A stretch of 64,000 nucleotides of DNA, from positions 25,018 to 89,017 of the forward strand of contig JACPPG010000055.1 of assembly GCA_016191115.1 (NCBI GenBank). The letters are read 5' to 3'. Positions 1,833 to 29,772 of the stretch are shown here, one piece after another; positions within the stretch are counted from its first letter, which is position 1, and the number at the start of each line of letters is the position of its first letter. The position numbers and the translations under genes were made by a program. Under the pieces are notes generated by a model. That model had not been told where the DNA came from and searched no databases. It saw only the letters and a list, made by a program, of their open reading frames with translations. The stretch is from Planctomycetia bacterium (GTDB lineage Bacteria; Planctomycetota; Planctomycetia; Pirellulales; JACPPG01).

Positions 1833-1960
1833 GAAAGGGCTCCATTTGGATCGGGCCAGCCCAGGCGCGCGGCGGCCAAATGGAGAAACCGGACCGCGCC
1901 CCAGGGCTGCGTGGCGGCCGGTTTGCAACCCGGCCATGCCGTCCCGGTGCTCGTACTTTA

Positions 1961-2479
1961 TCAGCTTTTGGCCATGCGCGCGGCAAGTAGCTTTGCAATG
2001 GCCGGGTCAAACCCAAGTCCGCTCCCCAGGGTGCCAAGCAGTCGCTCTGCCTGATGCGCCTCTTGGCAACTTCGATAGGTCAAGCCGTGGCACGTCCGGC
2101 AGCCGAAGTACCGCGCGCCGGGTGGCAGATAGACCTTGCCGACGCGCCGGTTGCAGGGGAAACCGCCCACGATCAACGGACAAGTGAACCACCACCGCTC
2201 GCCATTGAAATTCGTTGCGGTAGTCTGTAGGCGTATCGGGACCCGGACATCCTCTTGGTCGCGCCAGCGGTAGTGCAGCGTGAGGATCGGCCAGCCGGCA
2301 GGCCCCTCGACCACGTAGCCCGCAGAAGACTGGCGGCCGCCTGCCCACGTCCAGGTGATGATGCCCGAAGCCCCTGGAAACAATCGGCCGCGGAATTCGC
2401 CGACCGCCACGGCCGCCGATTCCTCGACGGTCGACTTGCTGTCGTACCGATGCCAGTCGCCGCTACCGATCCCGCCCAT
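1961..2479 (-). CDS. conserved-looking hypothetical Cys-rich protein
   Basis: 172-aa ORF whose composition looks like a real protein. Cys motifs WWFTCP...FPCNRRVGKVY...FGCRTCHGLTY suggest a zinc-ribbon fold. No function recognised. Confidence 0.55.
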   Translation of the reverse strand: MGGIGSGDWHRYDSKSTVEESAAVAVGEFRGRLFPGASGIITWTWAGGRQSSAGYVVEGPAGWPILTLHYRWRDQEDVRVPIRLQTTATNFNGERWWFTCPLIVGGFPCNRRVGKVYLPPGARYFGCRTCHGLTYRSCQEAHQAERLLGTLGSGLGFDPAIAKLLAARMAKS

Positions 2480-2877
2480 TACTGCCCCCGAGCCCCCCTG
2501 GGGTTATTGCCAAAATCAATTGGGAATGTTCGGTGGGGGCAAGCGCAGCCCCACAGAATTTGCGGCCCCGGCGCAAAGGCCCCACCAGCCTCCCAGGCGT
2601 TTCGGGACGTTCTGGCATCCGACGGCCCCACTGCCCACTATGCCGTGATTCTACCACAAGGGCGCCAACTCCGTCTGCCGCGTCGCTCGCAGGTTGCGGA
2701 CGGCCAAAGTGGACGGACCGCGCCTCCCACAGCAACGTAGGCCACAATCCGTCAAATTCTGGTTGCGACGGATTGCGATTCGCTGCGAATACGCGCGTGG
2801 ACGCATAGGCGCGGGCAACGTAAAGGCTGGCTACGACACTCTGGGCGTGACGGGCGTAAGGCGCCGTCCTGCATGCC

Positions 2878-3603
2878 TCATCGCGGCCGTTGGTAGGCGA
2901 TCTCGCGGAGCAGCTCTCGCTGCTCGCGGACATCCTCTGCTACGTCAATGGCGAGCTGGATGAGTTCGGCAATAGCAAAGCAGGATACGGCCCACGCCGC
3001 TCCAAAGAACAGCCCTATTCCGACTAGCTGCGCATCGGGTCTGCGCCCTTCGAGCAACGGATACGCCACAAATACAAGTAACGTCACAATGACCACCAGC
3101 GTCGCCGATATGCGGAAAATTGAAGCAACGATGTGCAGCGCGCGAAACCGTGGGCTTCGCTGTCGCGCGACGGTGGCGACGCGGCTGGCGTCACTCGTAT
3201 CGGCTGTCGATTTATTTGAGACAGGGCCTTCATGGGCTTGGCCGACTGCTACTGGCGCTGGCCCACGGTTCGTGCGATCGCGTTCGCTTCCAGGCAATGG
3301 CGGTGGTAGGGACGGCTTGCCGTCCAGGGCCGGCGCGACCGCCATGACCGCCGATCGTTTGGCGTCGTTGACCTGCGGTTTGGCCGGCACGACCGCTGCC
3401 GATATCTCGTGGGCTGCGATCGGCTGAGTAGCCTTGACGACTAAACCCTGCACCTGCGACGCGCTGACCCATTTGCCTTCGGCGCTCCTGCGGATCAACG
3501 TGTCCGGGCCGATGGTCCCCCTCTCAGCTTTTGCCTTGAGTTCGGCAGCCGACACCGGTCCGACCATTTCGCCCATGACTTGGAAATACCACTCGCTGGC
3601 CAT
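2878..3603 (-). CDS. GYF_2 (DUF4339)-type domain membrane protein
   Basis: The N-terminus WYFQVMGEMVGPVSAAELKAKAERGTIGPDTLIRRSAEGKWVSASQVQGL matches the GYF_2 pattern (W-Y/F..x..GP.s..eL......G.i..dtlvw..g...W..a..v..L). The C-terminal part has two hydrophobic helices (ATLVVIVTLLVFVAYPLL, GIGLFFGAAWAVSCFAIAELI). Confidence 0.7.
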   Translation of the reverse strand: MASEWYFQVMGEMVGPVSAAELKAKAERGTIGPDTLIRRSAEGKWVSASQVQGLVVKATQPIAAHEISAAVVPAKPQVNDAKRSAVMAVAPALDGKPSLPPPLPGSERDRTNRGPAPVAVGQAHEGPVSNKSTADTSDASRVATVARQRSPRFRALHIVASIFRISATLVVIVTLLVFVAYPLLEGRRPDAQLVGIGLFFGAAWAVSCFAIAELIQLAIDVAEDVREQRELLREIAYQRPR

Positions 3604-3762
3604 TGGTCTCGCCCTCCACAGCTTGCCGTGCGGATTGCAGCACTACGAGTATCGACAGCGGTAAGCGCGATATCAAGCAACCCCTATCGCGTGCCACGCC
3701 GGGCGCCGCACGATTGTTTTGACTGCCGGCTTGTTGTAGGATCGCACGCAAACGCGGTCACG

Positions 3763-4473
3763 ATGGCCAACCCTGCGACGGTCTCTCTCCGTTTTGACAG
3801 AATGTGCATCCGCCTTCGTACTTGCGCCGCGACCGGTTTTGTCCTGATGACGCTCTCGCTCTCTGGTTGCTCGGGCTGCACGCAGAAGTCCGATCCGCGG
3901 ACTCCTGAGCCAGAGCCGCGGCCCAGCGCCTCGACCACCGCTGAGCCCGTTGAGAAGCCAATCGAGCAACCGAAGGGGCAGGATGAAGCAGTCGCCCAGG
4001 ATACCAGCGGATCACCGCCAGGCGATTCCAGCGACGCGGCCCAGCAGGACGACGCGGGTGAGGCAGGAAGCGCGACCGAAGAGAGCGGTAATGCTCGGCC
4101 TGCGCGATCGACCGAATCCGGCAAATCGTCGGGGGTGGCGTCGATTCCAGTCGATGCCAATGACAATTCGGGGGGTGGCGGTGAGCCCGCAACCGGCAAG
4201 TCCCCACCGGGCGGCCCGAAAGACGCTGCGACAGCGCGCCGGCAGGCGACAAAGGCGCTTGACCGTGCCGAGAAGGCAGCAGGCTCCGGAGATTTCGGTC
4301 GTGCGTTTCAGGAAAGTGTCACAGCCTGGCGAAGTGTTTTGCCCTTTCGTGCTGACCCCCAGTGCAAGTCGCTCGCCTCTTCAGCCGAGCAGAAGATGAA
4401 ACAATATGCGGAAGCTGCAAATTCTGCGGTTCCCGAAACGCCGAGCAGCGCCAAGCCGCTCTCGGTGAAATGA
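3763..4473 (+). CDS. putative lipoprotein, low-complexity acidic/Pro-rich with helical C-terminus
   Basis: Internal ATG at 3763 (alternative at 3802). Signal peptide plus lipobox FVLMTLSLSGC, then a Pro/Glu/Ser/Asp-rich linker and a helical C-terminal segment. The upstream part of the track ORF (from 3580) overlaps the start of the minus-strand gene. Confidence 0.5.
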   Translation: MANPATVSLRFDRMCIRLRTCAATGFVLMTLSLSGCSGCTQKSDPRTPEPEPRPSASTTAEPVEKPIEQPKGQDEAVAQDTSGSPPGDSSDAAQQDDAGEAGSATEESGNARPARSTESGKSSGVASIPVDANDNSGGGGEPATGKSPPGGPKDAATARRQATKALDRAEKAAGSGDFGRAFQESVTAWRSVLPFRADPQCKSLASSAEQKMKQYAEAANSAVPETPSSAKPLSVK

Positions 4474-4543
4474 CGCCGTCTTTTTCCGCTGGGATTCCCC
4501 GAAAAGTCGCCGCTATGTGGGGCTGCCCCGTGCGGCAAAATGC

Positions 4544-4571
4544 TTGAACCGCGCCCTCAAGCAAGTAGGAT
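4544..4571 (+). promoter_or_regulatory. candidate sigma70-like promoter for the GTPase operon
   Basis: TTGAAC (4544-4549), 16 nt, TAGGAT (4566-4571) in the 218-bp gap upstream of the operon. Weak match to consensus. Confidence 0.2.
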
Positions 4572-4598
4572 AGAGGGGCTCTTTTCCACCTTATCCAT

Positions 4599-4618
4599 CT
4601 GTATTGTCCTGTATTGTC
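4599..4618 (+). repeat. perfect tandem 10-bp direct repeat CTGTATTGTC x2, possible operator
   Basis: CTGTATTGTC at 4599-4608 and again at 4609-4618, read directly. It lies between the candidate promoter and the first ATG (4692) of the operon. Confidence 0.9.
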
Positions 4619-4691
4619 AGGCGGGCTCATTCAGATCGCGGGACGCAGCGATGCGATAGTGGACGACGCGGGCCGACTCCCAACGGAGAGC

Positions 4692-6065
4692 ATGATGGGC
4701 CAGGGGATGAATCGCTCTTCGATTCCCATTCAGTTGCGCGTCACGTGCCCGCATTGCTGGAGCCGCTTTGCGGCCGAAGACGCGCTATGGATTTCGCAGC
4801 ATCCGGACCTTGTTGGCGATCCGCGTCTTGGGACCGATCAGCAGCAGCGATTCCTTCCCACACGCTTCACCGTCGAAGGTGCAGCGATCGACTCCCGCGG
4901 GTTTGCCTGCCACGGATTGGCCTGTCCCAAGTGTCACCTGACCGTGCCTCGGGCGCTCTTCGAGATGGAGCCTCTCTTCATCTCGATTCTGGGCGCGCCC
5001 TCGTGCGGCAAGTCGTACTTTCTTGCCGCCATGTCGTGGCAGCTCCGCAAGACGCTCCCACACTCGTTCTGTATGGCCTTCAGCGACGCCGACCCGGCCA
5101 TGAACCATTACCTCAACGAGTACGAAGAGATTCAGTTCCTCAACCCGAATCAGGACCAGCTCGTCGCCATACGCAAGACCGAAGAGCAAGGCGACCTGTA
5201 CGACACCGTTTTGTACGGCGAGCAGGCGATCCGCTTCCCGCGCCCGTTCATCTTCGCGCTCCGTCCGTTGGAAGGTCACGTGAATTACGGTTCGTCAGCG
5301 CGAATCTCCAAGGGACTCGCGCTCTACGACAATGCGGGCGAAAGCTTCCTGCCGGGCAGCGACACCGCGGCCAGCCCTGTCACGCGACACCTGGCCCTCT
5401 CCCGTGCGCTGATGTTCCTGTTCGATCCGACGCAGGACCGCAGGTTCCGCGAAGCGTGCCGTGGCAAGACAGACGACCCGCAAATGCAGGAGCGATCCGC
5501 CCGGCTTGACCGCGAGCGGCCCGTTCGCCAGGACACGATTCTGCTGGAGGCAGCCGATCGCGTTCGCCGCTATGCCGGGCTGGCCCAAGCGGCCAAGCAC
5601 TCGCGACCCTTGATCGTTGTGGTGACCAAATACGACTGCTGGGCGTCGCTATTGGACAATGAACCGCTCGACGATCCGTGGGTACAAGGCAAACGCCGAC
5701 CCTCATGTGCTCTGGACAAGGAAGTGATTCAGGAGCGATCGCAAAAGCTTCGCAAAGTGCTCTGGCAACTGACGCCCGAAATCGTCGCCGCGGCCGAGGG
5801 GTTTGCTCAGCAGGTGATCTACATCCCAGTCAGCGCCATCGGACGCAGCCCCGAGAGCGACCCGCAAACCGGCGCGCTCGGTATCCGGCCGCGCGACATT
5901 CATCCCCGCTGGGCCGAAGTGCCGCTTCTGTACTTCCTGGCTCATTGGTGTGAGGGAATGATCCCCTACCGCAAGCCGAAGACGCACCGCATTGGGCCTG
6001 ACGATGACAACGACACGGGCACGGTGCCCTTCGGTGCGGCACGGAATCGCCGAGAGACGGCGTGA
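4692..6065 (+). CDS. zinc-ribbon + P-loop GTPase (TRAFAC-like), operon gene A
   Basis: CPHC (4746-4757) and CPKC (4923-4934) form a ribbon. G1/Walker A is GAPSCGKS (4992-5015), G3 is DNAG in LYDNAGE (5328-5339), G4 is TKYD in VVVTKYD (5625-5636), and there is a G5-like PVSAIG. No TM segment. Start is uncertain: TTG 4614, or ATG 4692/4695/4707. Confidence 0.8.
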   Translation: MMGQGMNRSSIPIQLRVTCPHCWSRFAAEDALWISQHPDLVGDPRLGTDQQQRFLPTRFTVEGAAIDSRGFACHGLACPKCHLTVPRALFEMEPLFISILGAPSCGKSYFLAAMSWQLRKTLPHSFCMAFSDADPAMNHYLNEYEEIQFLNPNQDQLVAIRKTEEQGDLYDTVLYGEQAIRFPRPFIFALRPLEGHVNYGSSARISKGLALYDNAGESFLPGSDTAASPVTRHLALSRALMFLFDPTQDRRFREACRGKTDDPQMQERSARLDRERPVRQDTILLEAADRVRRYAGLAQAAKHSRPLIVVVTKYDCWASLLDNEPLDDPWVQGKRRPSCALDKEVIQERSQKLRKVLWQLTPEIVAAAEGFAQQVIYIPVSAIGRSPESDPQTGALGIRPRDIHPRWAEVPLLYFLAHWCEGMIPYRKPKTHRIGPDDDNDTGTVPFGAARNRRETA

Positions 6066-9000
6066 CGATGATCCAGGAAATCTACTACACGTCCGCCCCC
6101 CGCGGTCTAAAGGCTGGCAGCCGAGGGTTCTGCACGGTCGTCAGCACGGCGGGCATGGCCAAGAACCTGGCCGACCGGCTGGAATCGCTTAGCGGATACC
6201 GTCACCTCTTCGGCCCGCAGGACCCGCAGGCGCCGCTGAATCCGGTCGTCTACTCGCACCTGCGGCTGGCAGTGGGAGGACGGCAGTACCACGTCCTCTC
6301 GCGCATCTGCGACGCGGGGCTCGACTATACGCAGCGGACCAACAAGTTTGCTCACCATGTCGTCCTAGATACTGCTGATCTGCCGGCCGGAGGTCCCGCG
6401 TGGCTCTTGTCCTTGCCCGGCTTCGTGCAGGCGACGTGGGACGGCGAGACCCGCACGCTGCCGGGCGGCCGGCGTCCGCCGTCGGGCGACGCACAGGCCG
6501 GAGTGTGCCGCGCTTGGCAACAATTGACCGGCGATGCCGGGTGGGGAGGGGCGCTTGCGGAAACAGCGCTGCCTGGATCGAACCGTCGGGCGGTCGTGGT
6601 CTTCGCACCAGGCATGGACATGTTGCAGTTGGTTGCCGAGGCCCTCGCCCTTCTATCGCCGGAGCAGCGCTGGGAGGTCACGTTCTCCACATATTTCACG
6701 AAGCTGCCGCCGGGCATCGATTGCAAATGGCGGTTCGTGGTCGAAGGTTCGCCGGAGGCCGCTGCCGCCCGGCCGACGCCACAAACGCTGGTCATCAACC
6801 TCTGCTCCAAGCAATCCGCCCCAGCGGCTAGCGCGCTAGCGGTGGCGGCCAGAACGGGCGTTGCACCGAAGTTGTCGGCCGCTCCGGTTTCCGGGTTTCC
6901 CGGCGACGAGCATCCAATGCCTGCCGAGCTTGGCGGCGATACCATCGACGAAGCCGATGAACTCGGGCTTGCGCTACGGCCAGGCGAGAGCCGTAGCGTT
7001 CGTGCACCGGCTGCGGCCAATGTCGGATCGGCGGGCAGTCGCGGGTATGACGTGGGACCCCCGCCGCTGCCGGGCGTGCAACTGGATCGGCTTGGCGCGC
7101 CAACTTCGCGACGCCGATTCGAGAAAAAAAGACCGTGGGGCCTCATTACCGCAGTCGTTGCCCTCTTCGCGGCGGTGGCTGGTGCCGGAATCACGGGTGC
7201 CGTGCTCCTCAGCAAAGGGGCACCTGAGCTTACGAGAAGCAATGAACAGGCCACTCCGGCATCCGCCGGACGTGGAACGCCGAAGGGCGCAGACGTTACG
7301 GACATTGTTCTCACGATTACACCGGTCGCAACACCGATTAACGCTGCCAACGCGATCGGCGCGTCGGCAAGCGGCACAGCCGAGCCTGGCGCCAGCGTCA
7401 GTGTCACGTGCACCGACGACGCAAATCAAAAGACCGACCCCTGCGTCGCGACGGCCGACTCATCTGGCAAATGGACCGCAACCGCTATCGATCTAAGGAG
7501 CCTCAAGGACGGTATGATCACTTTCACCGCTGCTGCTAAAAATGCAGCCGGAAACACTGCTCAGACTAGCGCGACCGCGACCAAGGACGCCGCAGCCCCG
7601 ACAATCTCCATCGCGCCGCTCGCACATCCGATCAATAGGGAGAATGCCGCAAGTGTGTCAGTAAGCGGCACGGCCGAGGCAAACGCAAGTATTTCGTTGA
7701 TAGCCACCGACACCGCAAGTCACAAGAGCGGGCCAAGCACTACTATGGTGGACTCGTCGGGCAAGTGGCACGTGGCCAACGTTAATCTGAACAGTCTCGA
7801 CGACGGGAAGATCACCTTCATGGCTACGGCCGCCGATGCCGCTGGAAACAAGAAGGCGGACAGCATTGAAGCGACCAAGGACACCACACTCCCAACCGTC
7901 GAGATCGCCACGGTTACAACAATCATCAGCGCAGCAAATGCCAAGAACGCGGCCGCTTCCGGCACAACGGAGCCGGGCGCAAGCATCACGATCGTGGCCA
8001 GTGACAGCGAAAATGCACAAAGCCCAATGCGCACGGCGACCGTCGACTCAGGCAACTGGTCAGTGGATGGCATCGACGTGAGCAGTCTCGCCGATGGCGA
8101 AATCAGTTTCGCGGCTACGGCCACAGATAGTGCCGGAAACCATGCCACCGCGACGCGCGCGGTTAAAAAGGCGGGCAATCCGTTCGTTGGTCTACCCGAT
8201 GCTCTTCCGATTCCTCCTTTCGCGAGCAAGAATGACTGTCAAATCCACAACGTCATGGTCTCAGAGAGTCAATTGTCATTGACCATTGATGGTCAAGGGA
8301 TCGTTCAAGATCGGCTAAGCATCTATTGCAAGCGCGACTCACACACAGAGCGCCCGACATGGGGTGTGTACTTTTCTGGGAAAGAAGGAAATGTGGGCGT
8401 GCTTGGTGATGACCCAACCAGAATTGCTCGTTTTGTATTAGACGCAGGAACGCTGAGCTTCTCTTGGGACGCCCGCGTCACGCCCGAGTTCGATTTGCGG
8501 AATTGCGTTCTGATTCTGAGCAGCGAGGGGAACACCTATCCCCTACAACTTCGGTCGGCGGAGTCAAGGTCGGCGCTTTCTGTCCAAAATCTGAAGGATG
8601 ACAACGTCGCTGCGGAAATTGCGCTCGATTCCATGCCGCCCTTTCAGCGGCTAAGGATTCGAGTCAATGGCGTTCGATCGAATGCCAGTGAGCCACTTCA
8701 GGGGCAGACGAAGTCGACAGCGCGGCCGGATCGGGCCGCGGTGGTGGTTCGTTACTCGCTGCAAGACGTACTACAGACGGTTGACGGTATTCGTGCCGCT
8801 CCTCCACCGAAGGAACTGAGACCGCAGACACGCGACGCTTTTGCAGATCGGCTCATGGATGAAATCCGCAAATCCTTCGCCGAGTATGAGCAGTCGGTTG
8901 TGCTGCTCCTGGAACTAGGGCAGGCAAAGAACCGACCGTCGGTTGTTCAGGTGAGGATGCGTTTTGGCAAGGTCACGGGTCGGGCTGTCGATGCCATTTC

Positions 9001-9322
9001 GGACGAAACTATTGACCAGATGTCCAACATCGGTTTTCAGCGGTTACAACCACAAGAAATTAACAAAAGGGCCGGTGCGTTGGCGAGTGAGGTGCTCGGC
9101 GCAGTGCTGAGAATCGATCAGGAAGCAAAAACACGGGACAAATTGCCGGTTTTTCATGACGCGCTTCTAAAAAAAGCGGCCCGCGGTGTGCATGCGCATG
9201 CGCTCCTCGTACTCGTCGACAAGCTCATTGCCTCGCTGGTCGACTATGAGGTGTACATGCCTTTCGAGGAATCGAAGAGTCGCGTGGTATTGGTCCGAAG
9301 CGACGTGAAGAGTGAGTTGTAA
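6062..9322 (+). CDS. bitopic membrane protein: GAP1-N-like cytoplasmic domain, TM, 3 Ig-like repeats, unknown C-terminal domain (operon gene B)
   Basis: The GTG start overlaps the gene A stop (GTGA); an alternative ATG is at 6068. The N-terminus MTMIQEIYYTSAPRGLKAGSRGFCTVVSTAGM follows the (Q)xxYTS..GL..G..GF....S.G opening I associate with GTPase-associated protein 1 N-domains. Next come a Pro/Ala linker, one TM (RPWGLITAVVALFAAVAGAGITGAVLLS, ~7129-7212), three ~96-aa repeats and a ~380-aa C-terminal region. Confidence 0.8.
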   Translation: MTMIQEIYYTSAPRGLKAGSRGFCTVVSTAGMAKNLADRLESLSGYRHLFGPQDPQAPLNPVVYSHLRLAVGGRQYHVLSRICDAGLDYTQRTNKFAHHVVLDTADLPAGGPAWLLSLPGFVQATWDGETRTLPGGRRPPSGDAQAGVCRAWQQLTGDAGWGGALAETALPGSNRRAVVVFAPGMDMLQLVAEALALLSPEQRWEVTFSTYFTKLPPGIDCKWRFVVEGSPEAAAARPTPQTLVINLCSKQSAPAASALAVAARTGVAPKLSAAPVSGFPGDEHPMPAELGGDTIDEADELGLALRPGESRSVRAPAAANVGSAGSRGYDVGPPPLPGVQLDRLGAPTSRRRFEKKRPWGLITAVVALFAAVAGAGITGAVLLSKGAPELTRSNEQATPASAGRGTPKGADVTDIVLTITPVATPINAANAIGASASGTAEPGASVSVTCTDDANQKTDPCVATADSSGKWTATAIDLRSLKDGMITFTAAAKNAAGNTAQTSATATKDAAAPTISIAPLAHPINRENAASVSVSGTAEANASISLIATDTASHKSGPSTTMVDSSGKWHVANVNLNSLDDGKITFMATAADAAGNKKADSIEATKDTTLPTVEIATVTTIISAANAKNAAASGTTEPGASITIVASDSENAQSPMRTATVDSGNWSVDGIDVSSLADGEISFAATATDSAGNHATATRAVKKAGNPFVGLPDALPIPPFASKNDCQIHNVMVSESQLSLTIDGQGIVQDRLSIYCKRDSHTERPTWGVYFSGKEGNVGVLGDDPTRIARFVLDAGTLSFSWDARVTPEFDLRNCVLILSSEGNTYPLQLRSAESRSALSVQNLKDDNVAAEIALDSMPPFQRLRIRVNGVRSNASEPLQGQTKSTARPDRAAVVVRYSLQDVLQTVDGIRAAPPPKELRPQTRDAFADRLMDEIRKSFAEYEQSVVLLLELGQAKNRPSVVQVRMRFGKVTGRAVDAISDETIDQMSNIGFQRLQPQEINKRAGALASEVLGAVLRIDQEAKTRDKLPVFHDALLKKAARGVHAHALLVLVDKLIASLVDYEVYMPFEESKSRVVLVRSDVKSEL
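7316..8182 (+). repeat. three tandem ~96-aa Ig-like coding repeats inside gene B
   Basis: Units at 7316-7603, 7604-7897 and 7898-8182. Shared pattern: I.....PI...NA...s.SGTAEpgAS.......d.........t..aDSSGkW......l.SL.DG.ItF.A.A.DaAGN.a....a.KD...PT. Confidence 0.85.
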
Positions 9323-9325
9323 GCG

Positions 9326-12283
9326 ATGCTCGACCATCAAAGAATTGTTGACGACATCCGCAGCGCCATGTACTCGGTGACGCCCGAGTCGTTGGACATG
9401 CTGCGCTTGGCCGTCGCAGATTATTCGGTCGCATGTGATGAGACGAACGAGCGGTTGCGGCAATGCAATTCGCTCCTCAAGCAGGGACTGCGGAGTGAGG
9501 CGATCCAGGCGTGCGAGGTCGAGCCGAACCTGCTCGACGTAGTGGCAACGCTTGACTTTGCTGAGCGCGACCAACTGGTGGCTATTACCCAGCAAAATGG
9601 CCTCGCGGTTCCGCCAGGATTGTCGATGGAGGTGGCGTCGGAACTCAATGAGGCGTACGCGATCCAGGCGCCCCTCGAATCGCTGTTGCGTCAGCACCGT
9701 CTGCTGGCAATCGCGCGCGGGCCGCTGGCCCCGAGGCTCAAGACGCTGCGGTCGATCGCGCGTCTCGACAAGCACAACTTCGTCTGGCAGGACGATGTCC
9801 GGCTCTTTGAAAAGGAACGTCTCAAGGAGATTCAGCGCGAGGCGAATCAGGCGGCAAAGGCGGGCGAAGTGGCCGTGCTCGACTCTCTGGCCGAGGAGTT
9901 GGCCGACAAGCAGTGGCAGCAAAAACCTCCGAAGGAGCTAGTCCAGGGAGTCGGTGAAATCGCGCATAGGGTCCGCCACAAGCAGACACGCAAGGAGCTT
10001 GAGGAGTTGGAGCCCGCGCTCAACAGCGCCTTTGCTGCATTCGATGTCGAGGAGGGGCGACGCTTGCGCGGGCGATGGAACGAATGCGTCGAGATTCTCC
10101 CACTCGAAGGCGACCCGCTCGCCGACCGTGTCGCGCCGGCGCTCGACTGGCTGCGCGAACAAGACGAGCAGGAAGAGCGATTGGGGAATCATGAGGCGTG
10201 CGTGGGCGCTTTGGAGTTTGCGCTTGATCGCCATGACCACACCATCGCCGAGCTGGAGCGCTTGTACCATGCGGCCGTGCGTCACGGCCACGATCTGTCG
10301 TCGTTCCTGGAGCGGCGCTATCAGGCCAAGATCAAGGGGTTGGAGTTTGCGGCGCGGCGGCGATCGGTGCTCATCATCACGTCGGTAGTGAGTGTCGTTG
10401 TGCTAGTCGCCGGCGTGCTGGCTGCAATGGCCTGGATGCATCACCGCTCCAATGAACTCGCCGGTCACGTGGCCGCGCTCTCTCAGTTGATTACCGACGG
10501 GAAGCTGCACGAATCGCAAAAGTACGCCGACGAATTGACTCAGTCGTCACCGCGGATCGCACACAGCCCAGAAATCGAGAAACTGGTGGTTCGACTCGAC
10601 GAGGATGTGAAGAAGGAACAGTCGCGGCAAGAGCAGTTCCAGCATGCGATTGCGCGGGTGAAGGCCGCCGGTTTTGACGAGCCGGATCACGATGCCCTGA
10701 AACGCGCCGAAGAGTCGGCTAAGACTCCGGCGGAGCGCACCGAGGTGGCCGAAGCGAAGGAGAGCATCGCCAAAGCGTTGCGAGAGAGGCAGGCAGAACG
10801 GGACAAGGCATTTTTGGCGGACATTGACGGCCTGGCCGACAAGGTCAAACAACTGGAAGGGGAGTTAGAGAAGTCCGGCGCGGACGATGATGCAGCGAGC
10901 GTGCAGCACTTTGCTCAGCTTCGAGCCGAGCTATCGGCGTTGAACGCCCGCGGGGAGCTGGTGACGCCGGCGGTGCGAAATCAGTTGAAACCATTGTCGA
11001 CGCGCCTGTCGGCATTGGAGGAAATGGTTTCACGCCATGCGAAGGCACAGGCGGCGCTCAATCAACTGATGAAGGCTGTTGGCGACCCCCAGGCGTACCA
11101 GATGGCCCTGCAAGATTACGTCAAACAACATCCCGAAAGTCCCCACGCCGCGTCCTTTCAGCATGTGAGCGCCGAAGCGCCGTTGTGGGAAGGCATGCAA
11201 CGGTGGGATGCTTTCGCCGTTGACTTGGGAAAAGCGGCCCGCGACGGCCTGACGCCCGCCGAAGGGAAAACGCTTCAAGACGGGGCTGACAAGCTGTTGA
11301 AGGAACTCGGCCAGTTTCCGCAGGCCGGGACGCTGCGAACCGCGCTTCCGCATCTGAAATCCGTTGTCGCCCGAATCGGCAGCGACGGCCCGCTCCACAA
11401 GCCGCTTGTGACGCTCTTCAACGATCGGCTGATTCATAACGTTCAGATGATTGAACACAAGGACGGAAGGCGCTGGTACACGGACAAGGAGCCAAGTGTT
11501 CGCGCGGACGGCGTGGACATCGAATTCCTGGCCGGGTTCGACTACTCGCATAAGCACAAGCCTCTTACATCTGGTGAAATCGCCAGTCGAGATCGAGCGC
11601 CGCAAGCGGTCGTCGCCGACAAGGTTCTTGCGGAACTCGGAAAGCTGGACGCAGCCACGCGCGAGGGAGAGTGGGAGCAGCACTTCGCCAACATCTTGGT
11701 TGCAATTTGCGAAGAACAGCGCATGGAACCGATCCTCAAGATTGCCCTGTTGAAGCGAGTAGTCCCAGTCGCCTGCGAGGGGTCCGACGTGTTGCGCTTG
11801 GCGCTGGCGAAACATCAGGAGGCACTGGAAGGCTCGGCCGTCAACGCGCTAGCGCCTTGGATGCTGCCGGAGTTTCCGGAGAAGGACAAAGATGCCAGGA
11901 AGGCCGTCCTTGAAGAGCGAGGACGCGCCAAGGGCGAACTGGAGGCCCTCGCCGACCTGCCCACTACTGTTCAGGTCGCGGCGAAAAAGCCCCCGCCCGT
12001 TCTCCGGCTGAACGAATATCGGTGGATCGGTCTGCTGGTCAAAGACTCCAAGGGCGGATGGACATGCATGATCCGTCCTAATGCTACGACCTCTCCAGGT
12101 GCCTTGTATGTCGTCGAGCAGCCAGCGGGACAGAAGCCCGTGAACATCTCGCCTATCGGCCACCTCGAAGACGGGAAGCCGCACCTTGATTCATTCAAGC
12201 CGGCCCTCCTCATGGAAGGGCGTCCGATCTATTTGCTGATGACTGCCGGCAAGGACCAGCAGGCCGCAGCGGTTCATCGATAG
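9326..12283 (+). CDS. 985-aa all-helical bitopic membrane protein with extensive coiled coil (operon gene C)
   Basis: ATG lies 3 nt after the gene B stop. About 345 aa of helical cytoplasmic region, then a positive-inside TM (ARRRSVLIITSVVSVVVLVAGVLAAMAWM), then ~600 aa with charged heptad-like stretches (EDVKKEQSRQEQFQHAIARVKAA, ADKVKQLEGELEKSG...). No enzymatic motif seen. Confidence 0.75.
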   Translation: MLDHQRIVDDIRSAMYSVTPESLDMLRLAVADYSVACDETNERLRQCNSLLKQGLRSEAIQACEVEPNLLDVVATLDFAERDQLVAITQQNGLAVPPGLSMEVASELNEAYAIQAPLESLLRQHRLLAIARGPLAPRLKTLRSIARLDKHNFVWQDDVRLFEKERLKEIQREANQAAKAGEVAVLDSLAEELADKQWQQKPPKELVQGVGEIAHRVRHKQTRKELEELEPALNSAFAAFDVEEGRRLRGRWNECVEILPLEGDPLADRVAPALDWLREQDEQEERLGNHEACVGALEFALDRHDHTIAELERLYHAAVRHGHDLSSFLERRYQAKIKGLEFAARRRSVLIITSVVSVVVLVAGVLAAMAWMHHRSNELAGHVAALSQLITDGKLHESQKYADELTQSSPRIAHSPEIEKLVVRLDEDVKKEQSRQEQFQHAIARVKAAGFDEPDHDALKRAEESAKTPAERTEVAEAKESIAKALRERQAERDKAFLADIDGLADKVKQLEGELEKSGADDDAASVQHFAQLRAELSALNARGELVTPAVRNQLKPLSTRLSALEEMVSRHAKAQAALNQLMKAVGDPQAYQMALQDYVKQHPESPHAASFQHVSAEAPLWEGMQRWDAFAVDLGKAARDGLTPAEGKTLQDGADKLLKELGQFPQAGTLRTALPHLKSVVARIGSDGPLHKPLVTLFNDRLIHNVQMIEHKDGRRWYTDKEPSVRADGVDIEFLAGFDYSHKHKPLTSGEIASRDRAPQAVVADKVLAELGKLDAATREGEWEQHFANILVAICEEQRMEPILKIALLKRVVPVACEGSDVLRLALAKHQEALEGSAVNALAPWMLPEFPEKDKDARKAVLEERGRAKGELEALADLPTTVQVAAKKPPPVLRLNEYRWIGLLVKDSKGGWTCMIRPNATTSPGALYVVEQPAGQKPVNISPIGHLEDGKPHLDSFKPALLMEGRPIYLLMTAGKDQQAAAVHR

Positions 12284-12306
12284 TGCGCAACGCAGGATCG
12301 ATCAAA

Positions 12307-13212
12307 ATGGCAGACCAGTTGTACATTCGGGTTCGCGGCCGCGTGCTCGGCCCGTACGATCGAGACAAGCTCCAATCGCTGGTCAAGCGCGGCCAACTTG
12401 GGCGCCTTCACGAGGTCTCTGAGGACGGCGTCGCTTGGGTGCGGGCAACGAACTTCCCTGAGATATTCGTGATGCCCTCGGTCGCGGTAGCCGGCCCCTC
12501 GGTGAAGGCACCACCCGCTGCCAGTGAAGTCCCTGGGTACGCGATCGAGCCAGACACGTCCGCGGCGGCTCCGACGGGCCAGACCTGGTACTACACGAGC
12601 GGCGGTGCCCAGCTTGGGCCAGTCGATTTCGCGTTTCTGCAAAAGCTGGCTGCGACGGGTCAACTTGGTCCATCCAATTTGGTGTGGACCGAAGGCATGG
12701 CCGAGTGGGCCGCACCTGGCGCCGTGCCCGGCTTGAACGCGCCGCCCGCCACGGGCCGGTCTGCTACGGCTAACGTTGCCACCGAGTCAGGGAACGCCGT
12801 CACGCCTGGTGTGTGTCGGGCGCTCGCCGGATCGCGGCGCTGGATTCTCTTTCTCGCCATCGTGACGTTTGTCTACTGCGGATTCTATGCCGTCTTGGGG
12901 GTCTGGGCGGTCGTATTCGGCTTTTCGTCGGACATTGCGGCTATCGTAGGTGAGGGTCTCTTCTTCCTCTCGACCGCTGCGGTCGGTGCCGCTGCCGGAG
13001 TGCTGCTGCTCTTCTATGCCAATCGGATTGGGGTCCTACAGTTCCGCCGCGATTTCCAGCAGTTGGAATCGACGCTTGAGGCGGCGCGCTGGTTTTGGGT
13101 ATATGCGGGCATCATCCAGATTGCCTTCCTGATATTCCTGTCGGCGTTGAGCGTCTGGGCGATGGCCGTCGGCGGCGCAACGGTGCGGGCGAGCGCCCGA
13201 TCGCTGTTCTGA
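12307..13212 (+). CDS. double GYF_2-domain polytopic membrane protein (operon gene D)
   Basis: ATG at 12307; the track ORF starts at a GTG at 12283 overlapping the gene C stop. Two GYF_2-like modules (LYIRVRGRVLGPYDRDKLQSLVKRGQLGRLHEVSEDGVAWVRATNF and TWYYTSGGAQLGPVDFAFLQKLAATGQLGPSNLVWTEGMAEWAAPGAVPGL) are followed by ~4 hydrophobic helices. Confidence 0.75.
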   Translation: MADQLYIRVRGRVLGPYDRDKLQSLVKRGQLGRLHEVSEDGVAWVRATNFPEIFVMPSVAVAGPSVKAPPAASEVPGYAIEPDTSAAAPTGQTWYYTSGGAQLGPVDFAFLQKLAATGQLGPSNLVWTEGMAEWAAPGAVPGLNAPPATGRSATANVATESGNAVTPGVCRALAGSRRWILFLAIVTFVYCGFYAVLGVWAVVFGFSSDIAAIVGEGLFFLSTAAVGAAAGVLLLFYANRIGVLQFRRDFQQLESTLEAARWFWVYAGIIQIAFLIFLSALSVWAMAVGGATVRASARSLF

Positions 13213-13236
13213 GGGATCGTTCGGAGCTAGCGCACA

Positions 13237-14103
13237 ATGCCTCAGGATGCAACGCCCCCGAACAACGACGTACCACTCGCCTGGGCACGTGGCGACATCG
13301 AGCAGCGCCTTGGCTTCCACGGCGGGCGCTATACGCGCGTCAATACGCTGCTTTCGTTTCTGATTGGTGCTGGATTGACGGTCCTATTTTTCGGCGCCTT
13401 GTTCCCCTTCCGAGGAACGAACGTTGCCGCGACCTTCATGGACCGAGGGCCGACACCTTACGTGACCATGCTGCTGGCGTGGTGGTCGGTGGCGATCCTG
13501 TTCTTGAAGTCGCGCAAGCTCGCGTTTCAGCAACGGGCGCTGGCGTACCAGGTTGTGCCGGAGAGTCACGATTTCGTGCTGTCCGCCGCGACCGCCGACC
13601 AGGTGCTGGAGCGAATCTACGCCACGGTAGACGACCCGAAGAAGTTCGTGCTCTTTAACCGAATCGTCATTGCGCTCTCGAACTTGAGGAACCTCGGCCG
13701 GGTGTCCGACGTGGACGACATCCTCCGTTCGCAGGGGGACGGTGAAGAATCGTCGATGGAGACCAGCTATTCGATCGTGCAGGGGTTTGTTTGGGCGATC
13801 CCGGTGCTGGGCTTCATTGGCACGGTATTGGGCTTGTCCGAAGCCATCGGGGCATTCGCGAGTGTGCTTGGTTCGGCATCGGAGGTGTCGGAAATCGCGG
13901 GTGCATTGCGCGGCGTCACCGCCGGCCTCTATACCGCCTTCGACACGACGCTCGTGGCGCTTGTTGCCGCGCTCATCATTCAGATCGTTCTCACGTTCTT
14001 GAAAAAAAACGAAGAGGAATTCCTTGATGCTTGCGCGGAGTATTGCGTCCGCAACGTGGTTGGGCGTTTGCGGGTGATGCCCTTCGAGACTGAGGTGGAA
14101 TAG
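13237..14103 (+). CDS. MotA/TolQ/ExbB-family proton channel subunit (operon gene E)
   Basis: Four predicted TMs. The C-terminal half, FVWAIPVLGFIGTVLGLSEAIGAF...LRGVTAGLYTAFDTTLVALVAALIIQIVLTFL, matches the conserved GxxGTVxGxxxAF ... TTxxGLxVA core of MotA_ExbB proteins. Confidence 0.85.
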   Translation: MPQDATPPNNDVPLAWARGDIEQRLGFHGGRYTRVNTLLSFLIGAGLTVLFFGALFPFRGTNVAATFMDRGPTPYVTMLLAWWSVAILFLKSRKLAFQQRALAYQVVPESHDFVLSAATADQVLERIYATVDDPKKFVLFNRIVIALSNLRNLGRVSDVDDILRSQGDGEESSMETSYSIVQGFVWAIPVLGFIGTVLGLSEAIGAFASVLGSASEVSEIAGALRGVTAGLYTAFDTTLVALVAALIIQIVLTFLKKNEEEFLDACAEYCVRNVVGRLRVMPFETEVE

Positions 14104-14105
14104 AA

Positions 14106-14927
14106 ATGGCCAGACGCCACCGATCCTCGCCCTTCTCGCTATTCAGCTTTCAGGACATCATCACGTCCGTCACTGGCATCATCATCCTTCTGACGCTCAT
14201 CTTGGCCTTGGAGCTGGTGACTCGCAAACCGTCTGCACAGGGGGGCAGCTCTCCTGACAATTCCGAACAGTTGAGGGAAAGCATCGCGGAAGCCGCCGCA
14301 GAGAGCGCGCAGCTCGAAGAAGCGCTTGAGAAGCGAACTGCTAGGGTGCAAGAACTGGCGGCCGCCTCTCCACAGCAGCTTGCCCGCGAGAAACGCGACG
14401 TTGAACAGGAAGTACAGCGTCTTGAAGCGGAGGTCCAGCAACTCGTGCGGCAGGCAGAAACCACCTCGCGCGAGAAAAAAGAGGCCGTCGCAAAAAGTGA
14501 GGATCGCGAACTCGACCGTAAGGAACTGAAGCAGCGTGAGGCGACATTGCGATCCTTGGCCGAAAAACTCAAGGACTTGAAGCGCAAAGATCACCTCATC
14601 TACAACCTCAGTCGCGACGCGGGGAAGCGGGCTTGGCTGGTCGATGTCTCGCCAGACAAGTTGGCCGCGGCGCCGCTCGGTGAGGCAGTGCCACCTACTG
14701 TATTTGAGGAGTCGTCGGCTTTCGCGCGGGCTCGCTCGTTCATCGATTTCACCAAGCGGCGAGACCCAAAGACCGAGTATTTTGTCTTCCTTATCAGACC
14801 GGCTGCCGTCGAGACGTTTGCCGACATTCGCTTGAAGCTTGAGGGTTCGGGCTTTGATATCGGGTTTGATGTTATCGGTTCGGGCCAGACCGTTCTTGAC
14901 CCAAAGACGGGGGCTTCGATCCGATGA
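14106..14927 (+). CDS. ExbD/TolR-like single-pass subunit with long coiled-coil insert (operon gene F)
   Basis: Basic N-terminus MARRHR, then FSLFSFQD(17)IITSVTGIIILLTLILAL, with the Asp preceding the TM as in ExbD D25/TolR D23. About 130 aa of coiled coil follow (QLEEALEKRTARVQELAA...VQRLEAEVQQLVRQ). The C-terminal YFVFLIRPAAVETFADIRLKLEGSGFDIGFDVI resembles the ExbD periplasmic beta-alpha-beta unit. Confidence 0.65.
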   Translation: MARRHRSSPFSLFSFQDIITSVTGIIILLTLILALELVTRKPSAQGGSSPDNSEQLRESIAEAAAESAQLEEALEKRTARVQELAAASPQQLAREKRDVEQEVQRLEAEVQQLVRQAETTSREKKEAVAKSEDRELDRKELKQREATLRSLAEKLKDLKRKDHLIYNLSRDAGKRAWLVDVSPDKLAAAPLGEAVPPTVFEESSAFARARSFIDFTKRRDPKTEYFVFLIRPAAVETFADIRLKLEGSGFDIGFDVIGSGQTVLDPKTGASIR

Positions 14928-15835
14928 GTAGACGCAAGCGCCAACCCGAAAGCAGTCTGGAGCTGCTGCTGGACACGATTTGCAACACGTTCGGTGGCAT
15001 CCTCTTCTTGTCGATCTTGATCGTCGTCCTGTTGCAGATGACGGGCGGTGCACGATCGAAGACGGCCGAGCCGACCTTGTCGGCTGCTGAGTTGGCGGAT
15101 TTGCGTCGGCAGCACGCCGAGGCACTCCGGCATTTGGAGACAGTGCAGGCTGCGATTGACAAGCAGCGAGACCTGCTCGACCAGTTCGCGACTGCGGAGA
15201 ATGTGGACCTGCTCCGGGAGCTGCAAGCCCTGGAGCAAACGCGGGAGTCGCTGCGGTCGCACCGTGCGGCGACCATCTCCCAAATCGCCGAAGCACAGGC
15301 CAGCGTCGATGCCGTTGAGAGTGACCTCGCCGAACTTGACCAGCATCAGAAGGAACTGGAGCAGCAAGTCGCCGTCGCCGAACGATTGCTTCAGGCCGAG
15401 GTTGCGTCTCGGACCACCGCAGCCCGCCTGCCTCGTCAGCACGCTACCGGGAAACAAGAAGTCGGGGTCTTGGTCCGTTACGGCCGGCTGTACCTTTGGC
15501 ACAAATACGATTCCCACGGGCTTCGGCTCGGTCTTAATTTCGACGACATGGTGGTCGTCAAAGAACATGGGACGCGACTGGAAACTGCGCCGAAGCCGTT
15601 TGCCGGCGTGGTCTTGGAGAAGGGAGTCGACGCCGAGCGACGAATCCGGGAGAAGCTCTCCGGCTTCGATCCACGCACGATGTATGTAGCAGTGGTCATT
15701 TGGGAAGACTCGTTTGCGCAGTTCCAGATTCTAAAGAACGTGCTGGTCGAGCGCGGATTAGAGTATCGTCTCATGCCGACCGAAGAAGGCACCGAGATCA
15801 GCGACCACGGCGGCACCGGCAGCCGCGTCCAGTGA
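14924..15835 (+). CDS. second ExbD/TolR-like single-pass subunit with coiled-coil insert, paralog of gene F (operon gene G)
   Basis: ATGA overlap with gene F. MSRRKR...SLELLLD(17)TICNTFGGILFLSILIVVLLQM, then coiled coil (LRHLETVQAAIDKQRDLLDQ...ELDQHQKELEQQVAVAERLLQ). The C-terminal MYVAVVIWEDSFAQFQILKNVLVERGLEYRLMP is ExbD-like. Confidence 0.65.
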   Translation: MSRRKRQPESSLELLLDTICNTFGGILFLSILIVVLLQMTGGARSKTAEPTLSAAELADLRRQHAEALRHLETVQAAIDKQRDLLDQFATAENVDLLRELQALEQTRESLRSHRAATISQIAEAQASVDAVESDLAELDQHQKELEQQVAVAERLLQAEVASRTTAARLPRQHATGKQEVGVLVRYGRLYLWHKYDSHGLRLGLNFDDMVVVKEHGTRLETAPKPFAGVVLEKGVDAERRIREKLSGFDPRTMYVAVVIWEDSFAQFQILKNVLVERGLEYRLMPTEEGTEISDHGGTGSRVQ

Positions 15836-15950
15836 CGGGAACGCGATTCGGGAAGGCGAGGACGCCCTCAAAGCCGAAGGGCACAAAAACGCCAAGCAAG
15901 AGGCCCGCCGGATCGAAGCCGAGCCGCTGGACACGGCCTACCTGGACCAG

Positions 15951-16178
15951 TTGGCGATCCGCGACCACAACCGGCAAGCCGCCAAGGAAGCGGCTGCGGA
16001 GGCTCGGCGGACGTACCGGCCACTCTCACCGCGGGAGCAATTGGAAATGCTGATGCTCGCCCAGCCGATCGGCAGCCCAGAGCGGGCCGCGCTTCAAAGG
16101 CAACTTGACCGGATGGCGAAAAAGAAGCCCCCGAAGGATCGGCCCAGGGCATCCGTCCACGCTGCCGCTCGCCGTTAG
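15951..16178 (+). CDS. hypothetical charged helical peptide (doubtful)
   Basis: 75-aa ORF from TTG. The same frame is open from 15762 and reads as plausible protein (…DALKAEGHKNAKQEARRIEAEPLDTAYLDQLAIRDHNRQAAKE…), but no ATG/GTG/TTG occurs before 15951. Confidence 0.2.
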   Translation: MAIRDHNRQAAKEAAAEARRTYRPLSPREQLEMLMLAQPIGSPERAALQRQLDRMAKKKPPKDRPRASVHAAARR

Positions 16179-16291
16179 CGGGGAATCAATTCGCCAAAAA
16201 ATGTGTGCGATAAGCGAACGGTCTACGGCCCACAGATGCCAGAGATTCGACCCGCCCTCCCCGGTCTTGTCCCGCTTACGGCCGGTAGCCC

Positions 16292-26879: not shown

Positions 26880-26968
26880 GTGCCGACCTCGTGGCATGGC
26901 GGGGGACGCAGGCGGGATACGCCACCACGCTAACAAATGGGCGGCCGCGGTGCAAGAAAACCAGGCGG

Positions 26969-27694
26969 CTACACCGCCACGCCGACCACGTGCCGCGCGA
27001 TGTCGAGCGCCGTCGTGTACAGCATCAAGCCTGCCAGGCACAGCCAGCCGGTGATGGCCAGTGGGTAGTGCAGCCGGGTGGCGCGCGGGTGCAGCTTTTC
27101 CAGGAGCGAGAGGACGATCTTGCCGCCATCCAGCGGCGGCAGTGGGAGGAGATTCAAGATCGCCAGGTTGAGGCTGATGATGATCGCGAATCGCGCCAGC
27201 CCGAGCGCGCCCGCCTGGGCGAATTCACCGCCGATCGCCACGATCCCGACCATGCCGCTGAGTTGATCCGGATGGCTGAACGCGCGCGGTAGCGAGGCAA
27301 GGAGCGTGGCCGTGATATTCGCCGTCTGGATCCACGGTTTGACGAACAGCCCGGAAAGCGTGGCGCCATCGACCGCCGCGTTCATCGCCGCGTAGAGCAC
27401 TACCGGCAAGAGCAGGTTGGCCACCGGTCCCCCGAGCGCGAACAGAATCCGCCCGGCGACCGGCAAGCGAAAATAGTCTTCCTCATTCTCGATGGCCGGC
27501 AGCACGTAGCCGCCGAGCGGAACCGGTGCGATCCAGTATTCCGTCCGGCCGATCTTCTTCCCCCACAGCTTCGGCCCGAAGCCAATCGAGAAGCGGGCCA
27601 CCGGGATGCCGGCGATCCACGCCGCCACCAGGTGCCCAAGCTCGTGGATCAAGATCAACCCGCCGATCAAGAGTGCGATGAGGAGGTAGTTCAT
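26969..27694 (-). CDS. M50 site-2 protease family membrane metalloprotease (no PDZ)
   Basis: LILIHELGHLVAAWIAGIPVARFSIGFGP (HExxH within TM1), polytopic, with LNLLPLPPLDGG near the C-terminus. Confidence 0.8.
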   Translation of the reverse strand: MNYLLIALLIGGLILIHELGHLVAAWIAGIPVARFSIGFGPKLWGKKIGRTEYWIAPVPLGGYVLPAIENEEDYFRLPVAGRILFALGGPVANLLLPVVLYAAMNAAVDGATLSGLFVKPWIQTANITATLLASLPRAFSHPDQLSGMVGIVAIGGEFAQAGALGLARFAIIISLNLAILNLLPLPPLDGGKIVLSLLEKLHPRATRLHYPLAITGWLCLAGLMLYTTALDIARHVVGVAV

Positions 27695-27842
27695 GGGGGC
27701 AGCAATTAGCAATTAGCGATTGGCCGGAGGGAACCGGACGTTCGACGCGGTGCGCGAAGAGCACCCTACCTACTGTGCACTGTCGGTGATTCGCTGTCCA
27801 CTGCAACTGGCCAGTCGCGGGAGACTCGGCTAAACTGGGCCG

Positions 27843-29759: not shown

Positions 29760-29772
29760 ACGGTCTCGGACC

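Follow-up and report, generated by a model that had tools for sequence, protein, structure and literature searches.

What kind of system is encoded by the seven tightly packed genes at positions 4614-15835 of a 64,000-nucleotide stretch of Planctomycetia bacterium DNA (JACPPG01; contig JACPPG010000055.1, positions 25,018 to 89,017; hereafter the window)? A GTPase, a GAP1-like protein, a GYF-domain protein and a MotA/ExbB-type channel are encoded side by side in this region, and an original prediction, made by a model from the sequence, knew of no named counterpart for such a set. The analysis reported here shows that the locus is a planctomycete GAP1-N2-type DO-GTPase system, with a conserved core of four genes (A-B-C-D) and an exchangeable output acting in the periplasm, and that the output in the present copy is a MotA/ExbB-family channel combined with a new paralogous pair of Asp-bearing partner proteins (E-F-G). 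The seven open reading frames (ORFs), all on the + strand, were found where they had been placed. TM stands for transmembrane.

Gene A, ORF 4614-6065 with likely start ATG 4692, + strand: soluble zinc ribbon plus TRAFAC GTPase of the DO-GTPase2 type.
Gene B, 6062-9322, + strand: GAP1-type bitopic protein of 1086 amino acids (aa), Pfam GAP1-N2 and GAP1-M.
Gene C, 9326-12283, + strand: bitopic protein of 985 aa from a large unannotated family.
Gene D, 12307-13212, + strand: two GYF domains and a polytopic TM region, Pfam GYF_2.
Gene E, 13237-14103, + strand: MotA/TolQ/ExbB-family channel subunit of 288 aa, Pfam MotA_ExbB.
Gene F, 14106-14927, + strand: bitopic, Asp17-bearing partner subunit, from our own alignment.
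Gene G, 14924-15835, + strand: paralog of F with the same architecture, from hhalign.

That these co-directional genes form one unit, as had been proposed, is borne out by their junctions and by the recurrence of their order in dozens of planctomycete loci. A and B overlap in GTGA (6062-6065), or are 2 nt apart if B starts at the alternative ATG 6068. C begins with ATG 9326, leaving a gap of 3 nt after the stop of B (9322), and D starts either with GTG 12283, at the stop of C (12283), or, more likely, with ATG 12307. D and E are separated by 24 nt (13212/13237) and E and F by 2 nt (14103/14106), while F and G overlap in ATGA at 14924-14927. For A, the ATG at 4692, which is preceded by GGAGAG, is a likelier start than the TTG at 4614. 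The NCBI proteins HYX69_17880 and HYX69_17895 are each 100% identical to C and F, respectively. No second copy of the cluster was found within the window, and a promoter and terminator scan of the window gave no signals above the chance level.

Conservation was followed in five annotated contexts, three loci with E from a genome scan and 80 metagenome loci. In the synteny tally, made by tblastn of the window proteins, only loci with room for the gene in question were counted. Order and strand are kept for A in 23 of 25 loci, for B in 26 of 26, for C in 35 of 39, for D in 55 of 61, for F in 51 of 53 and for G in 39 of 41. Chance adjacency of unrelated genes is rejected by this recurrence. The best-conserved protein of the cluster is E (median identity to the window 58%), followed by A (49%), the N-terminal part of B (44%), D (35%), G (32%), F (30%) and C (27%). 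The cluster was also found in the cultured Posidoniimonas corsicana and Bremerella sp. P1, in the latter at about 1.73 Mb of CP118164.1.

Loci seeded by E contain E-F-G by design, and therefore seven loci seeded by C were sampled instead. Four of them carry the complete A-B-C-D-E-F-G set (L091, L092, L094 and L097). The other three (L093, L095 and L096) have the same A-B-C-D core without E, F and G. In L095, a GYF-TM-trypsin protein is encoded between C and D (11851-13257), followed by a protein with zinc ribbon, Pro-rich and TM parts and by a lipoprotein PLDc_2 enzyme (15438-16190) with an Ada-type Zn domain. In L096 (12830-16713), D is followed by a GYF-TM-trypsin protein and then by a TM Laminin_G_3 protein with a weakly DnaJ-like N-terminus, and in L093 (13045-15864) by a 939-aa protein of CarboxypepD_reg repeats. 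The A proteins of L093 and L095 are 65-67% identical to the window A, above those of most E-carrying loci, which indicates an exchange of cassettes between close relatives. Downstream of the A-B-C-D core, E-F-G is one alternative among several, and the seven genes are not the indivisible set that had been supposed.

A further kind of variation was seen within the E-F-G cassette. One or two extra genes stand between E and F in 16 of 76 E-bearing loci (for example L001:10877-13356, L002:10846-11925 and L047:10855-11844, and 13 other loci). They encode either a TM protein, with or without GYF, whose Gly/Ser-rich linker leads to a VWA domain, or a beta-domain protein with the motif GDVQISLxWNNxNDLDLHV..P.GE...GGELDVDMN and a faint DUF2135 match (E-value 0.075). 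Several modules share a plan in which a cytoplasmic GYF handle and at least one TM segment are joined to a working domain in the periplasm, the compartment in which all output modules act.

The switch part of the core consists of A and B. Against Pfam DO-GTPase2, the window A scores 22.5 bits (E-value 1e-4), under the cut-off of 27. The model is matched by all 21 of 21 A-family members (best E-value 4.4e-7), so that the assignment is firmer at the family level. The zinc ribbon and the complete GTPase motifs that had been read from the window are invariant in the 21 homologs: C19/C22/C78/C81 (CPxC...CPxC), the P-loop G101-x-P-x2-GK107, the Walker B stretch Y212-DNAGE217 and K313-x-D315 (TKxD). 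The Walker B Glu, defining mark of the DO-GTPase family (PMC7159879), is invariant within YDNAGE. B is bitopic, as described, and its GAP1-like part resolves in Pfam into GAP1-N2 (aa 3-134, E-value 1e-28) and GAP1-M (aa 150-247, E-value 1.6e-16), which are present in 24 of 24 and 22 of 24 B homologs, respectively. No Pfam match to GAP1-C was obtained past GAP1-M. There follow a disordered Pro-rich linker with PPPLPG at aa 333, a single TM segment (aa 365-383) and, outside the membrane, the three Ig-like repeats already recognised (about aa 415-715) and a C-terminal region without assignment (aa 721-1086). All B homologs have a single TM segment at about aa 340-380. In L095 (6354-8840) and L093 (6122-8946), gene calling divided B into two or three ORFs, with GAP1-N2, GAP1-M and a remainder of 494-605 aa as the pieces; these are either genuine splits or assembly frameshifts.

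The two sides of B differ sharply in conservation. Over its cytoplasmic 260 aa, B shares 53-77% identity with the best-matching of the listed homologs. For the ectodomain (aa 401-1086), a BLASTP match was found in none of 23 homologs, L006 included, although L006 is the closest relative (A 82% and E 87% identical). Beyond aa 260, the sole BLASTP alignment is a weak one to L006 in the linker/TM part (aa 261-400). The ectodomains of the homologs are nearly all unalignable with one another, and Ig-like domains, here of adhesin type (matching Big_13 and Ca_tandemer), occur among them in the window's copy only. No tandem DNA repeats were found beneath the Ig repeats.

D has the double GYF and TM architecture assigned to it at first, with two cytoplasmic GYF_2 stretches in Pfam (E-value 4e-23) and a polytopic TM region after them, which is annotated as DUF4190 in D homologs. 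PPxP-type motifs occur in the cytoplasmic linker of 15 of 24 B proteins, and the Pro-rich linker motifs of B are plausible GYF ligands by analogy with the GltJ-AglZ precedent. C had been taken for an all-helical bitopic coiled-coil protein. It is bitopic and largely helical, with a helical cytoplasmic N-domain (aa 1-349), a TM segment at about aa 348-372 and periplasmic helical repeats. The periplasmic part also contains two beta subdomains (AlphaFold2 model, mean predicted local distance difference test (pLDDT) score 86.7), and a simple coiled coil does not describe it. C has no match in Pfam or NCBIfam, and Foldseek of the model against the PDB gave generic helical-repeat matches only (TM-score <=0.14), nothing of significance. 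Its family profile collects 3,432 representatives at E-value <=1e-3 and 2,074 at <=1e-30 (clusters of 50% identity). Nearly all members have 950-1,000 aa; conservation is strongest in aa ~1-170, and the TM segment is not conserved.

Much of this core has been described before. GTPase-centric systems of a DO-GTPase and a downstream GAP1 protein were defined by Kaur, Burroughs, Iyer & Aravind (eLife 2020, PMC7159879). The GAP1-N2 systems are membrane-proximal and lie in mobile neighbourhoods with variable components, and GAP1 is often fused to TM and extracellular domains; in a planctomycete variant, a double-GYF protein is a fusion with either trypsin or a TM-rich region (PMC7159879). The window agrees in its zinc-ribbon GTPase A with the Walker B Glu, in B with GAP1-N2 and GAP1-M directly downstream, in the C-terminal TM segment and extracellular repeats of B, and in the double GYF and TM segments of D; the GYF-TM-trypsin form is found in L095 and L096. 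It differs in that Pfam detected neither a GAP1-C domain nor a separate FNIII-repeat protein in the cluster. The fast-evolving part of the published systems is the FNIII repeats, whereas that of the window is the B ectodomain itself. For A, B and D, a named counterpart therefore exists, down to the double-GYF/TM variant of planctomycetes. PMC7159879 describes neither the E-F-G cassette nor the C family nor the upstream lipoprotein: MotA, ExbB, TolQ, ExbD and 'proton' are absent from its text, legends and one supplement. Full-text literature searches returned no paper that ties DO-GTPase/GAP1 to a MotA/ExbB channel. Thus the GTPase/GAP1/GYF part was published in 2020, and the MotA/ExbB link, the F/G family, the C family, the lipoprotein and the cassette logic apparently have no description in the searched literature.

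What, then, is the E-F-G output? E is a MotA/TolQ/ExbB-type channel subunit, as first assigned: it scores 43 bits against PF01618 MotA_ExbB (cut-off 22.9, E-value 4.7e-11), and it apparently has four TM segments, three of them above the hydropathy threshold, with a conserved cytoplasmic loop. By hhalign against E. coli TolQ/ExbB (E-value 2.2e-5), T196 and T238 correspond to the pore threonines T145 and T178 of TolQ; T196, T237 and T238 are invariant among homologs. More than 2,900 relatives were collected at E-value <=1e-5. The best 120 are 63-99% identical, and all of these that carry an organism name belong to Planctomycetota.

F and G are paralogous over their full length, as had been suspected. 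The two families align with a probability of 99.2% by hhalign (E-value 8.6e-20, 263 columns); pairwise BLASTP of F and G is weak (E-value 2e-4). F consists of a short basic N-terminus, a TM helix, a helical stalk of about 110 aa and a C-terminal alpha/beta domain, and G is built alike; the TM helix spans aa 17-35 in F and aa 19-37 in G. The AlphaFold2 model of F (mean pLDDT 76.6) has helices at aa 51-83 and 89-160 and a C-domain with pLDDT >90. Asp17, near the cytoplasmic end of the single TM helix, is invariant in 46 F and 50 G sequences. It lies in the motif FQD17I in F, where L12, F13, F15, Q16, D17 and I18 are invariant, and in LLD17T in G, where Asp17 and Thr18 are. A lack of conservation of the GTPase motifs and of Asp17 had been named beforehand as a refuting outcome; both proved to be conserved among homologs. 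In addition, F and G vary together in the spacing between Asp17 and the C-domain (Pearson 0.92, Spearman 0.77, 47 loci, in several distinct length classes), a correlation inflated by shared ancestry; such covariation of lengths is what is expected of paired stalks. From the adjacency of the genes, the TM Asp17, the pore threonines and the stalk covariation, we infer that E-F-G is a 5:2-type motor.

Heterologous partner pairs of this kind have a recent precedent. Asp-bearing 'transpore helix' proteins have been reported in heterologous pairs with TolQ-like motors, together with vWA transducers (Mol Biol Evol 2025, PMC12204202), and the window resembles these systems in that a TolQ-like channel adjoins a heterologous bitopic pair with a conserved TM Asp. 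TM-linker-globular VWA proteins also stand beside the motor in some loci of the window's cluster. The partners in PMC12204202 differ from F and G in carrying vWA domains, or in being TolR-like with a TPR gene, and for those motors another gene order and no GTPase, GAP1 or GYF core are reported. The nearest mechanical analogy for the F/G stalk may be GldLM/PorLM of gliding and type IX secretion. There, an ion-driven unit has a dimeric single-TM partner with a long periplasmic shaft; GldM is a homodimer of beta-rich domains, while F and G are a heterologous helical pair, and sequence similarity between the two systems was not detected. The annotation of the NCBI protein identical to F lists PF28019.1, and that of the F homolog P0228 lists PF28006.1. 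Neither was matched in our own Pfam scans, in which F and G gave coiled-coil noise only; the entries may reflect recent curation of the F/G family.

Two more genes lie just upstream of A:

Gene 0, 3580-4473, + strand: predicted lipoprotein just 5' of A, no Pfam match.
Divergent GYF gene, 2878-3603, - strand: single GYF domain, disordered linker and two C-terminal TM segments, GYF_2 E-value 4e-13.

Gene 0 encodes a signal peptide ending in ...LSLSGC, a disordered linker rich in S/P/E/G and, at the C-terminus, about 70 aa that form a conserved helical motif; translation probably starts at an internal ATG near 3763-3799. At least 11 other loci have, immediately 5' of A, an ORF with a lipobox-like Cys and this C-terminal motif (L006, L007, L008, L069, L065, L034, L060, L027, L022, L052 and L091), and the gene is kept in about half of the loci. 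Gene 0 is probably an eighth member of the cluster, for which no lipoprotein partner had been recognised before. A terminator-like hairpin at 4463-4478 overlaps its stop; such sites occurred at chance frequency in the scan. The divergent GYF gene resembles a one-GYF form of D and has the same low G+C content at third codon positions (GC3) as its surroundings. It is possibly an accessory GYF adaptor. Further GYF proteins are encoded beside the cluster in L007, L095 and other loci.

The composition of the region is distinct from that of the rest of the window. GC3 is 0.62-0.79 across 381-15835, that is, in the cluster genes and in the three upstream genes, back to the window edge, and 0.78-0.87 in the fifteen confident genes tested from 17345 onward, a difference which may partly come from amino-acid composition or expression level. 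The low-GC3 stretch, at least 16 kb long, is a compositional island; on the left it runs past the start of the window, and its right edge showed neither a tRNA nor a repeat. Serine recombinases, a transposase, AIPR or Mrr_cat were found within 10 kb of the cluster in L006, L007, L008, L091 and L092. The flanks of the loci are unrelated to one another, with 95 Pfam families in 107 ORFs, and relatives of the window's own flanking genes were found beside no other cluster copy. At the left end of the island, an ORF at 381-1937 (- strand, 518 aa) has low GC3, a Cys-rich zinc-ribbon-like tail and a weak HVO_0758 match, and an ORF at 1961-2479 (- strand, 172 aa), also of low GC3, has CxxC-type motifs. 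Neither ORF has a family assignment, and relatives of the two were not found near other cluster copies. Farther downstream, DUF1501 genes are paired with PSCyt2/PSD1 (DUF1549/DUF1553) genes at 25380-31257, 38735-42453 and 52699-57899, with PSCyt1 once. Such paralogs are typical of planctomycetes and agree with the taxonomic assignment; the remaining window is ordinary planctomycete chromosome.

How might these parts work together? E may form the pentameric ion channel of a 5:2-type motor, with the Asp-bearing N-terminal helices of an F + G heterodimer inserted in its pore and their paired stalks, each about 110 residues long and ending in an alpha/beta domain, reaching into the periplasm. A helical stalk of this size would measure roughly 15 nm. 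The variable ectodomain of B would sense a periplasmic or surface cue, which would alter the hold of the B GAP1 domains on A and thereby set the GTP state of A. The GYF domains would dock on Pro-rich linkers, such as PPPLPG in B, and so bring the output module to the core. C could serve as a large bitopic helical scaffold, and D would provide GYF adaptors on a membrane anchor. The switched complex would then gate the ion flow through E, and either the F/G stalk would be turned for mechanical work in the periplasm or the membrane potential would be drained. We favour an envelope surveillance or conflict role, directed against phages or invaders, in which E-F-G takes the place of the effector, because the cassettes are exchangeable with protease/PLD (phospholipase D) ones, the ectodomain is hypervariable, the composition is that of an island and such a role is predicted for the family. 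Taken as a whole, this reading seems to us rather probable than not: confidence is high for the architecture and moderate for the biological role. The narrower proposal is that E-F-G represents an unrecognised class of 5:2-type motor, with heterodimeric 'B' subunits of a new family and a periplasmic helical shaft, gated by the GTPase/GAP1 switch and serving, on a par with protease or nuclease effectors, as an interchangeable output of a widespread and highly diversified envelope surveillance in Planctomycetota. It is possible, and we advance it with some doubt.

Several results weigh against these proposals. The label ExbD/TolR, under which F and G had first been placed, is based on architecture only, and neither the sequence nor the fold comparisons yielded a link to ExbD, TolR or MotB. 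Pfam ExbD gave no match at E-value <=1 for full-length F/G and none at <=10 for 92 isolated F/G C-terminal domains; profile searches of the PDB returned coiled-coil noise, with no ExbD or TolR; hhalign against E. coli TolR + ExbD was not significant (E-value 0.25-0.3); and neither ExbD nor TolR is among the top 50 Foldseek matches. F and G are therefore not filed as ExbD/TolR members, nor could they be placed in MotB. The pairing of GYF with Pro-rich motifs is no more than suggestive, such motifs being present in 15 of 24 B linkers, and the shared ancestry behind the stalk correlation and the possible other sources of low GC3 count here too. As to the role, the conflict function of DO-GTPase/GAP1 systems is itself a computational prediction only (PMC7159879), the flanking ORFs are mostly housekeeping genes, no cluster relatives were found on viral contigs, and PADLOC called no known defence system. 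The strong purifying selection on E and the very stable gene order would also fit a constitutive envelope machine. All components, moreover, are known from sequence and models.

Of the two analogies offered originally, that with conflict systems is favoured, by the swappable protease/PLD cassettes, the hypervariable ectodomain and the compositional island, but membership in Zorya is not. The likeness to Zorya is that of a MotA/ExbB-family channel with an Asp-bearing partner outside motility, plausibly guarding the envelope, and PADLOC gave domain-level matches of E to ZorA (weak, E-value 1e-4) and of the F N-terminus to ZorB (very weak, 0.013). The window E, of 288 aa, is without the long cytoplasmic tail of ZorA; F and G are without a peptidoglycan-binding domain, and their long stalk is periplasmic; and PADLOC found no ZorC, D, E, F or G in the cluster. 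The Zorya motor is the sensor, whereas the motor here stands in an exchangeable output slot after a GTPase switch. Membership of the locus in Tol-Pal, Ton, flagellar stator, Zorya or Agl-Glt systems is rejected, since the Pfam, NCBIfam and PADLOC tests all failed; that this is not a textbook locus of these kinds had been rightly foreseen.

The other analogy leads to a serious rival, though an unlikely one, in which the locus encodes a force-generating machine across the envelope that resembles Agl-Glt and serves adhesion, gliding or interaction with surfaces. E-F/G would pull on periplasmic or outer-membrane partners, namely the periplasmic part of C, the lipoprotein and the optional VWA proteins, and the GTPase would set the place and time of assembly, as MglA does via the ZnR-linker-GYF switch of GltJ. 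The parallel parts list stands: one TolQ-like subunit with two different TolR-like, Asp-bearing partners, control by a GTPase, GYF and zinc-ribbon modules with membrane proteins, a large helical scaffold and a lipoprotein. In GltJ, a Pro-rich sequence is bound by the GYF domain and MglA-GTP by the linker (PMC11135422). VWA adhesins or 'force transducers' adjoin TolQ-like motors (PMC12204202), much as GYF-TM-VWA or related genes stand between E and F in 16 of 76 loci, and the adhesin-type Ig repeats of B, the strong conservation of E and the stable gene order would suit such a machine as well. There are differences, however. A is a DO-GTPase2 rather than a small GTPase of the MglA type; the GTPase itself carries the zinc ribbon, and a polytopic protein the GYF domains; D reaches only 24.5 bits against the gliding_GltJ model (cut-off 450), in the GYF region only; and no Glt families, outer-membrane components included, and no TonB_C domains were found in the cluster (Pfam, NCBIfam). 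A dedicated motility engine would hardly be expected to give way, as E-F-G does, to periplasmic protease/PLD cassettes on one and the same core, and the island-like composition of the region also argues against one. Gliding is not known as a trait of most Pirellulales.

The same observations may also be read without conflict. A variable receptor B could signal through the GTPase to periplasmic modules in envelope signalling or remodelling, for cell-cell contact, kin recognition or rosettes. GAP1-N2 systems show a strong statistical link to multicellular or aggregating lifestyles, planctomycete rosettes included (PMC7159879), a hypervariable ectodomain is typical of self/non-self recognition proteins too, and every output module acts in the periplasm. 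These features fit the conflict role equally, and trypsin-like proteases and a PLD-type enzyme in the periplasm resemble effectors more than signalling parts, so we regard pure signalling as distinctly unlikely. Hardly probable at all is a Ton/Tol-like energiser for outer-membrane uptake or tethering, with C as the TonB/TolA-like transducer. Points in its favour are the bitopic build of C and the length of its periplasmic part, the relationship of E to TolQ/ExbB, the lipoprotein gene upstream and the uptake of polymers by planctomycetes into an enlarged periplasm. Pfam and NCBIfam, however, found no TolA, TolB, Pal, TonB, TonB_C or TonB-dependent receptor domains in the cluster, E scores 13.6 bits against the tolQ equivalog (cut-off 221), the TM segment of C is not conserved and has no SHLS-type motif, and the GTPase/GAP1 core with exchangeable cassettes has no Ton or Tol counterpart.

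Envelope surveillance with E-F-G as its output thus remains the preferred reading, and it bears on several questions of planctomycete biology. DO-GTPase/GAP1 systems are known from one comparative-genomics paper, and the present variant offers a concrete, assayable output in the form of an ion-driven channel or motor. Two large unannotated families, C (more than 2,000 clusters at 50% identity) and the F/G pair, are defined. The interchange of a motor with protease/PLD cassettes on one core is a natural experiment on what the core senses, and the presence of the cluster in the cultured Bremerella sp. P1 and Posidoniimonas corsicana makes genetics feasible. The locus would add a GTPase-gated module to the jobs of 5:2 motors, which include flagella, Ton, Tol, gliding and Zorya. 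If the reading of E-F-G is true, it would be the first GTPase-controlled stator-like motor, and planctomycetes would have a second route, independent of Zorya, to motor-based immunity.

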